This document shows positions 30,869 through 37,736 of a stretch of DNA of 64,000 bases, piece by piece. A program made the translations under genes and the position numbers. Within the stretch, counting starts at the first letter, position 1, and each line of letters begins with the position of its first letter. The notes under the pieces were generated by a model that saw only the letters and a list, made by a program, of their open reading frames with translations, made no database searches and was not told where the DNA came from. Origin of the DNA: Fistulifera solaris (taxonomy: Eukaryota). The stretch is from assembly GCA_030295235.1 (NCBI GenBank), contig AP026126.1, positions 1,798,001 to 1,862,000 on the forward strand. Direction: 5' to 3'.

Positions 30869-33455
30869 TTAGAGATCATTCATCGCGACAGAGAGCCGCC
30901 ACGCCCCGCGATTCTTGTCCCAATATTCCGCATCCTTGGGCTTTCGACCTTTGGGTCGTAAGAAGAACCCAGTAGAAGGATCCTGTTTGAGTGTCGCATT
31001 TGGTTTCATCCAACAAACTTCCGAATGTTGCTCTGATTGAGAATTGCTGGAGAGCTCTTCAAAAGGATGCCGAACAGAGTTTTTATTTTTACGGGACAAG
31101 GGAAATGCTGGATCAGGGCTACATACGATGTCAGTTTGCTGAGTGTTCTTTTCATCAATTTCTTCGCATTCGACGTCCAAACTGTCAGGGGTACTCTGGG
31201 TGTCGTCCAGAAGGATCGGATTAGATGGGCTGCTCCCTTGAGAACAGCCACCTTCCTCTCGAACTAGAGTCTCGTTGCTTCTTTCGATCTGAATAGCGAA
31301 ACTATTCACATATTTCCCTTTCAGTACTTTTTCGAGCTTTTCGCGTAGGCTATGAAGCTCAGCATCTTTCTTAGAGACTTCTTCCTCAAATTTGGCGGAA
31401 ATAACGGCGATTTGATCTTCTTGATCCTTTCGCATTCGCTGCATTTCCTCTTCGCACTCTTCCAGTTGCTCGGTAAGTTCGACGATCTTTTGCTCTCCCC
31501 GCGACGGACGGAGCTTACTGGCGCTGGCCACTGTGCCAGATGAGACCAGATGCTCCATCTGCAGCTTCATTTTCTCGATAATATCATCGTACTGTTGGCT
31601 CATTGCCCGCATCTGACTCTCCATCTCTTCGGCGACTTCATCGCGAACATCCGCTTCAATGGACTCAATTTGATCACGAAGTTGATCAACATCTGCTTGA
31701 AGTTCATTATTCTGGGTTTTCAACATCTGGTTTTCAACTTCAAGAACCGACACTTTCATCTTCAAGGAGTTGATCTCTTTTGATCGGTCGAGTTTGATCC
31801 ATGTGGCGCGTTCTTTTCATCCTTTTAACAAGCTCGGTGCGACTCTTTTTATGATTGACCGGAAAATTGAAAACATCAGACGAATTAGCATCGTGGTCAT
31901 CGCTGTTTTCCTTCCGCTTTCGTGAGGCATTGAACCTGTGCGGTGAGAGCTTTTTGATCACATTGACGATTTTCTGTGATAACGTGGGTTTCCCGGACAC
32001 CATTCTGTGACCGTTGTTGTCATATTCCACAGTCACAGCTGGGGCCGCCTTTTCTTTTGGAATAGAGCTGGTATCGATATTTCGCGCAACACTAGAGTAA
32101 GAAAGAACGTGTTGTGTTTCATCAAAGTCAGACGCTGCAGGATTAACATTGATGACCATGCTTGTCCGATTTGCATAGGGTCCCATCCAATGAGCGGCGA
32201 ACAAGCGCGTTAGTTTGCTGTCTCTCCACGGAATTACAGCGTTTTTCTTGTCACCAGCCGAGCTTCTTAGACCTTCTAAGCATTGATTGAGCGTCATAAG
32301 AGACATATTGATGTTTGCAGCTTCTTGTTGTCGCAATCCACCGGTGCGCTTACTTCGTTCACTCCCAGCCAAGTCAACGATCCACAGATTTGACTTGATA
32401 TTTGAGCTTTCATTCAATACCTGAATCTGGCAAATAGCGTGAGAACGACTGCTCTCCTTATTGATGGAATTCGTAGCACATCGACGATTTGTTTTTGCTT
32501 GAGAGATGAAAGTTAAGCCGTCCGCAAGCGACGGTACTCGATGAAGTGAAATAGAATGCAATGACTTCTTTAAGTGGGCCGCAGTTCTACCCGTCATGGT
32601 TTCTACGGAAAGTAAATCGAATATCTTTTCATTGTAAATCTCAAAGTATGACATGTGCAATGAAAGATACGGTGTACCGTTGTTGCCAGACAGCTCAAAG
32701 AGATGCTTCAGCGCGCGAGGGAGCAGTCCCCATGATTGATTGACACTTTCCGACGTAAGAGTTTTATCTGGTCCAGTAACGGTGTAGGTCTTTCCTGCAT
32801 TAGTTATGCCATAACAGAATACTAGGCCAGACTCTCCAGCTAGAACACCGTTGATGTAAGGCGAGACAGTGCGCTCATAGACGGCTTGCTGACTGGCGTC
32901 TTGAGCAAACACTTCAGCGAATTCGAACTCCTTTACGGTACTACTACCTCCAGCTCGAGCAACTTTGAAAGAGTGAGAGCTTGCTGGAGCATGAGTACGG
33001 ATCTTTTGTACACTTTTCCCAGCAACCGTCGTCTTGGGCAAGATCTCAATCGTATTGTCAGAATTAGCCGTCGGGCGGAGACGTAGATAAACACTGAAAT
33101 TTTTTGCCTCCGGTTCGCTTTCACTTTCAAAGGAATCAAATGGAAGTGTGTGTGGTGGCTTCATTTCGAATTCGTGGATCTTCTCCGCTACCGATAGTCG
33201 GAACGACCCGGGCTCGCTCTGTCCAGGTTTTGTGAGTTGATCAAATGTTTCTCCGAGATTCTTCTTGAGTTGTATCGTGTCATTCAATGTCGTATTTAAA
33301 TCGCGTTCAGACTCAAGAGAAACATTAGCGTCTGGAAAGTAGCTTACATCTTGATCAATTCGACTGTTGTTCAGATCGCTCTCTTCGTAGTTGATCATGT
33401 CTGGTATATCATTCTCTTTGTCCGACAGAATGCTACTTTCGTTGATTCTCTCCAT
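30869..33455 (-). CDS. Kinesin (kinesin-6/KIF20-23-like) with coiled-coil tail
   Basis: VYLRLRP, YGITNAGKTYT, FEIYNE, SSRSH, DLAGSER, IPWRDSKLT. Frameshift at ~31770-31830 before the coiled coil. Confidence 0.9.
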
Positions 33456-34241
33456 TCTATCCAAGAATCTAAACTTTTGCACGTTTAGCAATAAGGGAAA
33501 CAAGTGTAGAAGTTACAATGAAGCTGTGGATGATTTGCGTTGCACTCATTTACTTGTAATTCATGACCTTAAGACTTGAGAGCCGTCGGCCGGCTTTCAT
33601 CGAATATTTTAGCCCTAACAAAGGTTAAATGCTAATTAAGCAGCATTTTTGCTTTCACGTTTCACACATTTGAGAGCTCTGCACTATTTTGTGAATTGTA
33701 GGAATGATAGTCACTCCGACTCAACCCATTTTCAGTCCCGGAAATATTTTGTCAAATACTCCGTAATCATTATGGTACAATGCTGCACCCTAATGATGGA
33801 TTACAAACTGGTATAGGCTCGTACCACTCTTATGGTTATCAGAGATGTTCTAGAGATAATTGCTGAGAATGAATTTTATAAATAATCAGAAATCATATCT
33901 AGAGGGGTCTATGTTTAGCTCAGATATTCGTGATGCCTATTCAACCGATCATCAGGCCCGCTAGTGCCCTAGAAAATGACTGATCATAAGGATAACTGAA
34001 CCTAAAAACGGTGCTACAAGTAAGAAGAAGGATCTCTACAGTCGTTGTTACTGCTCTTCTCAGCTGCAGTGATAGCGGACGCATCATTTTTGTCTCAAGC
34101 AAGGCAAGTAAAAGCGAAAGTCTACCCCTAAACAAGCTAGAGAGTCGAGCTCCGATGCAAACGAAACAAACAAATATACATAATCAGAATACCAAGTTGC
34201 TTATCGTATTTCATATGAAATGTACGAAGAACTGCCATCCA

Positions 34242-35878
34242 TTACCAATCACCCGAGTCTCCACTTGCCGCCATCCCTAGTTTTGATGCTTCTCGCGCGG
34301 CGCGTTCTTCCAGCAATGCTTCATGCCGTGATCTACGCGCTCTATTCATTTTGTATTTTGAAGCCATATCCACCAGCGCTTGTTCCGTCAAATGTTCACT
34401 CTCCATTTCAACAAAGGCGTAGGTAGAATTTGTCGGCACAATAACATCCACGACGCCGCGGTCTCCTCCATATTTTGCGAATGCGCGTTCGAGTTCGGCG
34501 CGGCGATGATCGATATCGGACTGAGTAAAGATCTTCGATAGACCGCTGATGAATAGTTTTCGTGGGTGGACAGAATTGAATTGATTGACGCCTGCGATGC
34601 CTGACACGTCTGCTTTTGCCATGAGGCTTTTGTGACCCCACCAAACCTAGAGCAAACATTCACTTAGCTGAAGAAAAAACAGCCGAAACATTACAATATC
34701 CGATCTTACCTTGTAAACTGTCCATGATTCGGGACTACCATAGTCGTCCGTGGAAGGGAACTGAAGTACCAAATGTGACGCCGAACTGAGATCTTGACGA
34801 TGTTCTAGACGCAAGCAATGTTTGCCTTCAAGGAATACGTCAAAGCCATCACCATGGATTTGTATGATCAGGGTACACGCAGTCTGTCCGAATAATATGG
34901 GTACTTGTGACAAAGGGATTGCAAGTGCTTGCCCCCAGATACCTTCGTTTTTGTCATTTACTATCAATTGGCCACCTCGCTCGAACTGACGCGGATTGAA
35001 ATGAAATAGTACACTTTCAAACGAATCGTGATCGGGTACAGCCAAGTTCAAACTGAAGCGTTTAGAATCTGATGGTGCCATAAATTTGATCGCCAGAGTA
35101 TTGTTGTAGCCCGGCTTTCCTAAGTGGTGTACATCAAAGTTTTCCAGGTCAATGCAGAGCGCTCCATCGTTGGGAGCAAAAACACCTTCCGGCGGTGACC
35201 ACTTCGTTTCATTGTTATCAAAAGGGAAAAGCGTTTTGCCACGAGAAGGTGTAAGCTCCAGATTTTTCGAGAAATCGTGGGGTGGCGTTGACGCAGCAGT
35301 AATGTTCGCAATAAGTGATGTAGTATTCTCTTCCATATCGTCTGCTCGTTTTCGCTTGATGAGTGCCGGAGAATCATCCTCTTTTTCTTCGTTGTCTGCG
35401 CCCGGTAAGTGTTGAGCAATCAGCTCTTCTCGCTTGGCGTCGATAACAGTTTGCGCTCTCTTTGCTTCCTGAACCTCTTTGCGCAAAGCTGCGAGTTTTG
35501 CCTCCCGACGTTCATGCAAAGTTGTTTCATCACCGGAGTCTTCTTCGTCATCCTCGAGTTCTTCTTCTTCGTCATCGTCGTCATCATCGAGATCCTCGTT
35601 ATCAGAAAGATCATCCGCTGCTATTTTCCTGGCGACACGCTTTCTCTTACGCGCCGGTTTCGCCATTCTCTGCTGGAACTCCGCATCTTTCGCAGCTAGT
35701 TTCTCCATGGCAGCTTCCGTTTTCAACCGCTGTGCAATTTTCTCAAGTTGACGAACATGTTCATACATTTCGAGCAGCATGTCTTCCTCTTCAGTCGTTT
35801 TAAAGTCGTCCGGAACAGGAAGAATGCCGTAGGTCTTTGCTGATGCGGTGTCGGATTACGCCAGTTGCTTGCACTCAT
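34242..35878 (-). CDS. Galectin-like domain plus RRM fusion protein with basic/acidic N-terminus
   Basis: FSLNL..LFHFNPR..VN....WG galectin pattern. In-frame intron 34647-34709. RNP2 LFISGL and RNP1 TYAFVEM. Start at 35878 needs one frameshift; otherwise 35780. Confidence 0.8.
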
Positions 35879-36623
35879 CCTTGTACTGTTTTAAGTCCAC
35901 CGGACGCGTGATTGTACTCTAATCGTTTTGCTAGCAGCCTTTTTGGTTTAGTAAGGTATAAGCTTTGTATCTTATCTCGTTAATCTTTATCGACGCGTTT
36001 CATGACTGAAAGGAACCGCAGTCAAACCTCAAAACTCAAAACCCTGGGTGATAAAAAGAACGGGCCTGTGATGATGATCACTTTGCGCTTCATCTGCGCC
36101 AGTTGCAAAGATTCGCAGGCACAGGCTACGTGATGCTTCGTAGCTTTTGTACTGCATTAAGATTTTGTCCAGTAGAACTCATACCACGAACAATCAATAA
36201 TCAACAATCAAAAAGAACTTCTACTACTAGGTACCAGTATTGTACACACGATACACACTACGTTCCTCCAAAAGTCACAGCGTTTCGCGTTTCGCACTTC
36301 TACGTGATGTTCCGTAGAAAGTTGTACCATAGAATAGAAACTGCGTTCGTCTCGCAGTTTCAGTTGCTGCATCGTCATGTTGAAAACAAACAAGACGGAT
36401 TGCAATCCATTGTGTTGTTGCTATCTGGTGTAATGATTGATAGGATACGAAAGCAGTGAAGATTTAGTCCTGCTCTGTTATTCTGCTTTGCGCAAAGTGC
36501 TAAGAGTTTAGGCAATCTACGAGATAATCAGCGCCGAGTTCGAAACGAAGATTCCCTGCAGTCGAATTCGTTTTTAACTTTGTCCCAAACTTTCAAAACA
36601 TACAATTCAAGGAACCCTGCATC

Positions 36624-37736
36624 ATGAAATATCTACATAATGATGCCTTATCCGAGTTGACAACTTTTCTTACCGATTTGCCGCTGGGTGGAGAGATATC
36701 GCAACGGGTCCTCTACGGTCGATTGGAAGCATTTTCGATGAAGAGAGGATCCGATGATAAGAGGTATGCTTTCAAATTAGGAGAAAAATTCGTAGCGTCG
36801 CTTGAAACCTTCGCAACGGATGTTAGTGCATTGAAACAGGCAACTAGGAAGCGAAGTCAATCTGCCGGAGTCTTTGAAGAAATGTCCATGCCTCTGGCGA
36901 AAGTGGGAAGAAGGAATCGTTCTTGCAGTTTCGATACTACACATAGGGAACTCAAAGCTGAGCTTGCTGGGGTACGTCAACGCTCGGATCGAATGACTGA
37001 ACTGCCAGACTTTAGTAAAACGATAGTTATTCCCTCAGGGTTGGGCAATTTTGCTGAGCAGGGCACACGACGACTCATGGTAAGTTGCAGCGAATCTCTC
37101 CCTCCAGTCATCTTATGAGACTTCAATATCGAGGCTAATGAAAAAGCTTTTTTACAGACTGATTTGATTTTGACGCTAAATATGAGTTTCCCAGACTTCG
37201 ACTTTGCAGCGGTGCAACCGTCAGATTTCGTCAATCTTTCGGTGCAAAAAACTATGGATCGTATCAACAAACGCCTCAGCGATGTCGCATTACATAAAGA
37301 GACGTTTCTGAAAGATTTATGGACTACCATAGACTCTGTCATGAAGCTCAGTGAATGTGACGTCTTCTGCTACCAGCCAGCTGTATCCGATGATGGAGAC
37401 CCGATGGCCTTTTTGACACAAACGTTGACAGAGAATCATGTCCGCAACAACAGTCTGAATGTTCCGCCCGACGACACAACATCAGGGACTGAAAGCTTGA
37501 GCCAGCCTTCTATTACAACAATCTGGTCCTTCAACTACTTTTTCGTGAACAAAACCGCCAAGCGAATACTTCTATTTACCTGCGTCGAAATCATGAAAAG
37601 CCATCAAAGAGAAGAATTAATAGGTGATGACGATTTCGCAGTTTATGTGCCGTCTACAGCAGATGCGAACGAGACCGACTTTGACCTCGACCCCGACTCG
37701 GCTCCTGCGGGCGGTGTTTCCATTTCACTCTTTTAG
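36624..37736 (+). CDS. MAF1: Maf1 repressor of RNA polymerase III
   Basis: MKYL, GRLEAFSMK....DK, LILTLNMSFPDFDF, LWTTID, CDVF.Y, IWSFNYFF.NK..KRIL; intron 37080-37157. Confidence 0.93.

Follow-up and report, generated by a model that had tools for sequence, protein, structure and literature searches.

What does a galectin domain do in the same protein as an RNA recognition motif (RRM)? The question is raised by a gene on the minus strand of a 64,000-nucleotide stretch of Fistulifera solaris DNA (the window, to which the positions below refer unless another locus is named), which runs from an ATG at 35876-35878 to a stop codon at 34242-34244. An earlier note on this DNA had read it as one gene and had taken the fusion to link a lectin fold to RNA processing in diatoms, mammalian galectin-1 and -3 being known to take part in splicing.

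The annotated counterpart of the gene is GAX19217.1 (P0311), a 524-amino-acid protein of Fistulifera solaris. Translated separately, three pieces of the gene match GAX19217.1 residues 1-14, 16-390 and 391-524 exactly. In the assembly, which lacks one base in a homopolymer near 35835, the ATG at 35878 and the remainder of the gene are in different frames. A contig from sequencing run X1, otherwise free of substitutions, carries an extra base there, and the proteins GAX19217.1, P0001 and P0002 all read through the homopolymer. Run X1 still contains the intron and looks like DNA; it may be the source sample and is therefore not independent of the assembly. Since the X1 contig has the extra base and GAX19217.1 matches the pieces exactly, the apparent frameshift is most likely an assembly error. 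A pseudogene was ruled out, the lone frameshift being absent from the X1 contig (with the same dependence on the assembly) and from the annotated protein. A second copy of the gene, its homeolog (L002), lies on contig C5, and the galectin domains of the two are 96% identical. L002 is also without a base at the same homopolymer, and lacks a second base further on. Because the homeolog shows these similar losses while its annotated protein, P0001, is intact, the assembly probably carries systematic single-base deletions. In a first-look Pfam search of the F. solaris genome these two homeologs were the only galectin-type genes found, and an Rfam scan of 33000-37500 gave zero matches.

The galectin–RRM gene lies head to head with a Maf1 gene (36528-37736, plus strand; Pfam E 9e-29, second frame), and about 750 bases separate their likely start codons. 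Downstream of the galectin–RRM gene, also on the minus strand, is a kinesin motor gene (31740-33512, continuing to about 30869; Pfam E 6e-76), in which a coiled-coil frame follows the motor frame.

Relatives of the protein were collected in several searches. Out of 371 candidates, the first yielded 190 proteins at E up to 0.001, and 120 of these proteins were listed; 56 of the 120 (counted by eye) carry both Pfam domains in precomputed annotation. Alignment A2 holds 95 of the 120 listed relatives, with short and partial ones left out, and the RRM motif is present in 89 of the 95, the other six diverging before the RRM. A profile search found 562 representatives, of which 150 were listed, and a profile search with alignment A3, which was swamped, returned three matches among 8000 scored candidates. 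The distant named members among the matches listed come from Tribonema, Ectocarpus, Discosporangium, a Hydrurales chrysophyte and Skeletonema, and the oomycete members among the matches listed from Phytophthora infestans, P. capsici and Globisporangium; a Hapterophycus member is a partial record with the galectin domain only. The profile search also brought up unnamed proteins of up to 3840 amino acids with up to 26 galectin-like repeats (P0147, P0150, P0153, P0180, P0214 and others). A wide set (alignment A4) comprises 35 hand-picked proteins, near-duplicates included, in which the galectin domain is detected in 34 and the RRM in 30 at E up to 0.01. By Pfam and profile search, the architecture is found in oomycetes and in several classes of ochrophytes, so that 'in diatoms', as the earlier note had it, is too narrow.

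One gene or two? The 63-nt, phase-0 intron at 34647-34709 (GTAAGA...CTCTAG, with GT-AG ends; 62 nt in the homeolog) sits not between the galectin domain and the RRM but inside the last galectin strand (model strand 386-393), so that the galectin domain is complete only once the intron is spliced. The intron ends in an in-frame TAG, and its retention would therefore truncate the protein. The sequence WWG, which follows the intron, is missing in 17 of the 120 listed relatives, and 12 of these 17 (counted by eye) stop matching exactly at the intron position, as would be expected of gene callers that ignored the intron. In all nine transcriptome-labelled diatom-type relatives examined, WWG runs on into the RRM. 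Runs X2-X4, RNA by our guess, gave contigs outside the intron and no read or contig joint across 34647-34709; we infer splicing of the intron in F. solaris from the relatives and the annotated protein. Two separate genes were ruled out, since the intron splits the last galectin strand and all nine transcriptome-labelled relatives continue from WWG into the RRM. Annotation and transcriptome-derived relatives thus bear out the first reading of the locus as one gene, in which a galectin domain is joined to an RRM through an in-frame 63-nt intron (Table 1).

Table 1 Features of the galectin–RRM gene, in 5' to 3' order of the gene
Feature	Position	Strand	Basis or remark
Start codon	35876..35878	-	Residues 1-14 reach 35837; exact match to GAX19217.1
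Homopolymer, one base missing	35835..35838	-	X1 contig has extra base; GAX19217.1, P0001 and P0002 continuous
N-terminal helix-start motif [TS]-x-E-E-x-x-L-L-x2-3-Y/F	35760..35795	-	Shuffle-tested conservation; candidate docking helix
Long N-terminal helix, residues 30-73	35661..35792	-	AlphaFold model of homeolog P0001
NLS-like basic cluster KPARKRKR	35637..35660	-	Sequence
Acidic low-complexity tract, predicted disordered	35526..35615	-	pLDDT <50 at residues 84-113
Second long helix, residues 119-160	35400..35525	-	AlphaFold model
Galectin domain, exon-1 part, residues 213-390	34710..35243	-	PF00337, PDB galectin matches, VIA-align
HFNPR	34989-35003	-	Galectin pattern
N308 codon	34956-34958	-	Galectin pattern
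WGQALA	34920-34937	-	Position of canonical WGxExR
DDYG-x-P-E family motif	within 34710..35243	-	Galectin domain
Intron, 63 nt, GT-AG, phase 0	34647..34709	-	Inside last galectin strand
End of last galectin strand, VWWG	34635..34646	-	Model strand 386-393; W-G in 35/35 wide-set proteins
Galectin–RRM linker	34563..34634	-	Fixed length and ordered in diatoms
RRM	34335..34562	-	PF00076; model aligns to U1A RRM
RNP2 LFISGL	34539-34556	-	In RRM
RNP1 STYAFVEM	34404-34427	-	In RRM
Helix after RRM, diatom-type members	34281..34328	-	Model helix 496-511; mean conservation 0.72
Terminal Trp and stop codon	34242..34247	-	Trp at 34245-34247

The galectin domain matches Pfam Gal-bind_lectin (PF00337) at E 4e-8 with 33.2 bits (cut-off 22.1). 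An AlphaFold model of the homeolog P0001 (pLDDT 81.8) comprises two helices (residues 30-73 and 118-159), a disordered stretch at residues 84-113, a beta-sandwich, the RRM and a C-terminal helix. Its top structural matches are all galectins (Foldseek E 3e-11), and it overlays galectin-9 and galectin-8N with a VIA-align Z of 16.5 and an r.m.s.d. of 2.2-2.4 over 146-147 residues. A core model of the relative P0050 (pLDDT 89.3, pTM 0.72) gives a galectin Z of 16.9. In the ESM Atlas, the core falls with galectin clusters at 0.76, to be read as leads only, and the whole protein gave no usable match. Pfam, PDB sequence matches and the AlphaFold model (Z 16-17 to galectin-8/-9) agree on the galectin domain that had been proposed here, and as modeled this protein has a galectin beta-sandwich fold. 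The closest known structures are the N-terminal domains of animal galectin-8 and -9 (9FXZ, 3WV6, 2D6N, 4BMB), with Z of 16.5-17.0 and an r.m.s.d. of 2.1-2.5 over about 146-152 residues at 18-23% identity. The F. solaris protein shares with animal galectins the H-x-N-x-R, N and W-G elements in register and the absence of a signal peptide, but differs from them in its D-D-Y-G-x-P-E loop and V-W-W-G end, in the loss of the Glu and Arg of W-G-x-E-x-R, and in being fused to an RRM and to a long N-terminal region that is helical and charged.

The canonical sugar residues of galectin-3 are given in part of PMC2934707 as H158, N160, R162, N174, W181, E184 and R186, and we placed their equivalents through alignments to galectin-8 and the W+3/W+5 spacing. 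The galactose-contacting set H/N/R/N/W is complete in 95 of 95 diatom-type proteins, and in the wide set its H, N, R, N and W are found in 33, 34, 34, 34 and 35 of 35 proteins, respectively. A Glu at the position equivalent to E184 (W+3) occurs in none of these (0/95 and, in a larger diatom-type count, 0/109; 0/35 in the wide set), and an Arg equivalent to R186 (W+5) in 1/95 and 2/109 diatom-type and 4/35 wide-set proteins. The altered WGxExR pointed out earlier (WGQALA) is a property of the family, with Glu absent from all members examined and Arg from almost all. In galectin-3, according to passages of PMC4422656, E184 touches GlcNAc and the R186A mutant has no measurable disaccharide binding. 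As this Glu/Arg pair is lost, ordinary lactose or lactosamine binding by the galectin domain described here is unlikely. The groove-side residues R274, S276 and N278 of strand S3 are conserved too, the groove is among the best-conserved parts of the protein across lineages, and it is still under selection. Since Glu and Arg are lost yet the groove is conserved across lineages, we infer that a ligand was kept whose second unit is different. On the opposite sheet, Q340, D347, H354, R357 and E359 are near invariant in diatoms and mostly not conserved in the wide set.

Other galectin folds are known in which the sugar site is altered, including human GRP, GRIFIN and fungal CGL3. Their structures (3B9C, 5NLD and 2R0F, respectively) show the same fold, with Z of 13.6-14.6, and none of them is listed with an RRM. 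In contrast to these proteins, the family described here has the galactose-contacting set intact and has lost the Glu/Arg pair only.

The RRM match to Pfam RRM_1 (PF00076) is at E 3e-4 with 21.0 bits, barely above the cut-off of 20.7; relatives reach E values down to 3e-14. The RRM of the P0001 model aligns with that of U1A at Z 10.8-10.9, and that of the P0050 core model at Z 10.9 with an r.m.s.d. of 2.1 over 75 residues. Of 109 diatom-type proteins, 99 retain all three aromatic or His positions of the RNP motifs, as do 26 of 34 in the wide set; chrysophyte-type members are often without some of the RNP aromatic residues, and oomycete members have textbook RNP motifs. With PF00076 above its cut-off and the RNP aromatic residues kept, the RRM called from the letters holds up. 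Among the best 60 of 340 PDB matches of the RRM profile, PABP, nucleolin, TIA-1 and Hu rank first. The protein is like these and U1A in its RRM fold and RNP1/RNP2 aromatic residues, but unlike them in having a single RRM joined to a galectin domain. A plausible RRM, then, of a generic kind, with RNA binding as its predicted activity. Among the best 60 PDB matches of the family profile, none has a galectin domain and an RRM in one chain.

A complex prediction that used no alignments scored 0.01 for galectin–RRM contact, which gives no answer, and the pTM of the P0050 core model does not settle how the two domains are arranged. The linker between them is of fixed length and ordered in diatoms, and longer and RGG/GY-rich in oomycetes; such RGG/GY-rich linkers, of 47-72 residues, are found in the oomycete members and one further protein (P0293, P0295, P0292, P0294, P0296, P0301, P0246). 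At the other end, the C-terminus is Trp or Trp plus one residue in 84 of 87 RRM-bearing diatom-type proteins. The terminal Trp is missing in the oomycete, brown-algal and named chrysophyte members.

The N-terminal region holds a third conserved element, which the earlier note had missed. The helix-start motif occurs in 87 of the 95 diatom-type proteins, where shuffles predict 0.05, and in 14 of the 35 of the wide set, where they predict 0.0; several records in the wide set lack part of the N-terminus. A looser form of the pattern is present in 11 of 14 hand-picked proteins, including oomycete, Tribonema, brown-algal and chrysophyte members. Pfam scans of the N-terminal parts gave scattered weak matches only. 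N-terminal matches to Cwc15 and similar proteins, at E 0.08 or worse, cover acidic or coiled stretches. The pattern K[KR]x[KR] precedes the galectin domain in 94/95 diatom-type and 26/35 wide-set proteins (counted without a shuffle control), and the acidic tract in 69/95 and 7/35. By a hydropathy scan alone, no protein has a hydrophobic N-terminus (0/95 diatom-type, 0/35 wide set). The KPARKRKR cluster and acidic tract noted at the outset were thus both located, with NLS-like runs common in diatoms and no signal peptide by hydropathy scan, and in diatoms the protein is probably nuclear. Outside diatoms a nuclear location is less clear, because basic runs of four or more are found in only 15 of 35 wide-set proteins.

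How old is the fusion? In a midpoint-rooted tree, the 35 wide-set galectin domains form one clade (100/99) against a limited outgroup of 26 domains from 13 multi-galectin proteins. The galectin and RRM trees recover the same groups, namely an oomycete group, Tribonema with a brown alga, a chrysophyte-containing group and a diatom-containing group, and this match fits one fusion inherited since the oomycete–ochrophyte ancestor. Databases hold the same protein or its relatives as UniRef 'Galectin' entries (A0A1Z5JYY8, D0MW20) and as P. infestans PITG_02330, and JGI uses the label 'Galactoside-binding lectin/RNA recognition motif'; the labels are automatic, with no function in the records seen. 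A survey of oomycete domain combinations reportedly has tables that may include the galectin and RRM pair. In full-text searches, no description of a galectin–RRM family was found among the matches listed, and main-text passages of PMC10343441, PMC2705460, PMC3129679 and PMC5758549 do not mention it. The family joins two well-known domains in an ancient pairing, apparently undescribed, whose sugar site is consistently remodeled.

We tentatively favor a reading in which the protein is an intracellular RNA-binding adaptor of stramenopiles and recognizes a nucleocytoplasmic glycoprotein by its terminal galactose-like mark. As sequence, annotation and relatives show, one chain carries an N-terminal helix, a disordered basic/acidic region, the galectin domain and one RRM. 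The RRM, judging from its RNP residues and the RGG linkers of oomycetes, would hold single-stranded RNA. The groove, judging from its conservation, would bind its ligand through the galactose subsite H, N, R, N, W. Since the Glu/Arg pair that grips the second sugar is lost, lactose and lactosamine would not be bound in the ordinary manner, and the most likely ligand would be a galactose-like sugar at the end of a glycan on a nucleocytoplasmic glycoprotein. The N-terminal helix may dock the protein on a larger complex. The outcome would be that RNA and partner are brought together only if the partner bears the sugar mark. A candidate mark, and as a ligand a guess, is the Skp1 glycan with its alpha-Gal cap, known from Pythium, an oomycete. 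Marks of this type do occur in this branch: passages of PMC8724618 describe a protist Skp1 glycan with beta-Gal and terminal alpha-Gal, and part of the pathway in Pythium.

The conserved groove could equally bind a peptide or a nucleotide. This is the starting point of a different and rather unlikely explanation: the groove, reused for a peptide, a nucleotide or the RNA backbone, would make the protein an RNP subunit, neither of whose two binding surfaces takes a sugar. The loss of Glu in all members examined, and of Arg in almost all, would agree with this, as would the galectin-1 mutants, blind to sugar, that still support splicing in an account given in part of PMC2934707; the near-invariant residues on the opposite sheet in diatoms would then form a protein-contact surface. 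Yet the wide set has conserved few of those residues, and what oomycetes and ochrophytes have kept is exactly the galactose-contacting set, stacking Trp included. The splicing factor of the earlier note, in which the spliceosomal role of galectin-1/-3 is fused to an RRM of its own, strikes us as very improbable. Diatom members do combine NLS-like clusters with an acidic tract, the RRM aligns best in structure with U1A and other RRMs of the spliceosome (Z 10.4-10.9), and galectin-3 joins spliceosomes with U1 snRNP (passages of PMC2934707). However, these Z values are bunched and are what RRMs in general would give. In the best 60 of 340 sequence matches the RRM comes nearest to PABP, nucleolin and TIA-1, and the Cwc15-type N-terminal matches are the weak ones described above. 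The animal precedent is itself weak: in the same passages of PMC2934707, galectin-1/-3 do not bind pre-mRNA directly and their sugar site is dispensable for splicing, and in part of PMC11648975, endogenously tagged galectin-3 gave zero RNA crosslinks, which speaks against direct RNA contact. Because galectin-1/-3 do not bind pre-mRNA and the RRM is generic, the Rosetta-stone argument leads to RNA in general, not to splicing. The specific link to splicing is left unsupported by the generic RRM, the separation of the galectin clade from the multi-galectin outgroups used and the weak animal evidence; the broader idea, a putative tie of a lectin fold to RNA metabolism, stands. Least probable of all is a sensor in the cytosol, which would recognize glycans that damaged vesicles or invaders expose and couple this recognition to mRNA control. 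Galectin-8N and -9N are the closest solved folds, animal galectin-3/-8 detect damage (passages of PMC5758549), the hydropathy scan finds no signal peptide and oomycete linkers are RGG/GY-rich, but lactosamine binding needs the Glu/Arg pair, which is lost, and diatom members carry strong NLS-like clusters.

The layout of the protein recalls another RNA-binding subunit. Our impression is that its N-terminal helix motif resembles that of NELF-E. The protein might accordingly be read as the stramenopile counterpart of NELF-E in a pausing complex with added reader modules (WW on NELF-C/D, galectin here): the N-terminal helix would dock NELF-B, the RRM would bind nascent RNA, and the galectin domain would be an added reader in a variable middle. 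We consider this quite improbable. Animal NELF-E, as described in passages of PMC4940160, has an N-terminal part that anchors it to NELF-B, a variable middle and one RRM near the C-terminus, at 257-335, and the F. solaris genome encodes NELF-C/D (Pfam TH1 E 5.5e-45, PDB E 2e-18) with two added WW domains. Diatom members also end in an aromatic residue, as NELF-E does, but the Arg-x4-Tyr motif of the cap complex (PMC5670239, in part) is present in none of 87 diatom tails, and the galectin domain has no counterpart there. NELF-E is not listed at E up to 10 in PDB sequence searches with three N-terminal profiles and with P0257, short helical motifs being weak queries, and its RRM is missing from the best 60 of 340 PDB matches, among which proteins with several RRMs predominate. 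Searches of the genome for the NELF-B and NELF-A families gave no candidates (their prokaryote controls were uninformative), so that neither is confirmed, and a published survey, in the part available to us, finds NELF-E only in animals (bioRxiv 2023.02.19.529146). If the NELF-E reading were true, a sugar mark inside the cell would influence early polymerase II transcription, and animals would not be the only organisms with a NELF-E-like subunit.

The NELF-C/D gene encodes 881 amino acids with its two WW domains at the N-terminus (L006:259-2904, contig C2), and has a homeolog (L005/L008) on C1. An 894-amino-acid frame with one central bromodomain lies at L015:214-2895 (contig C5) and again at L017 (C6). 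The L015 frame is not confirmed as NELF-B: its N-terminal part has no PDB match, and both flanks of the bromodomain have no Pfam match.

Whether lectin folds have a direct role in RNA metabolism has been debated for decades on the basis of galectin-1/-3, whose direct RNA contact is now disputed (PMC11648975, in part). A galectin domain and an RRM in one chain, with the galactose contacts kept and Glu/Arg lost, make the question testable in a tractable diatom. Under the adaptor reading that we tentatively favor, the family points to an intracellular ligand in stramenopiles, and its conservation suggests an old link between a lectin and RNA handling in these organisms, by way of an intracellular sugar mark.
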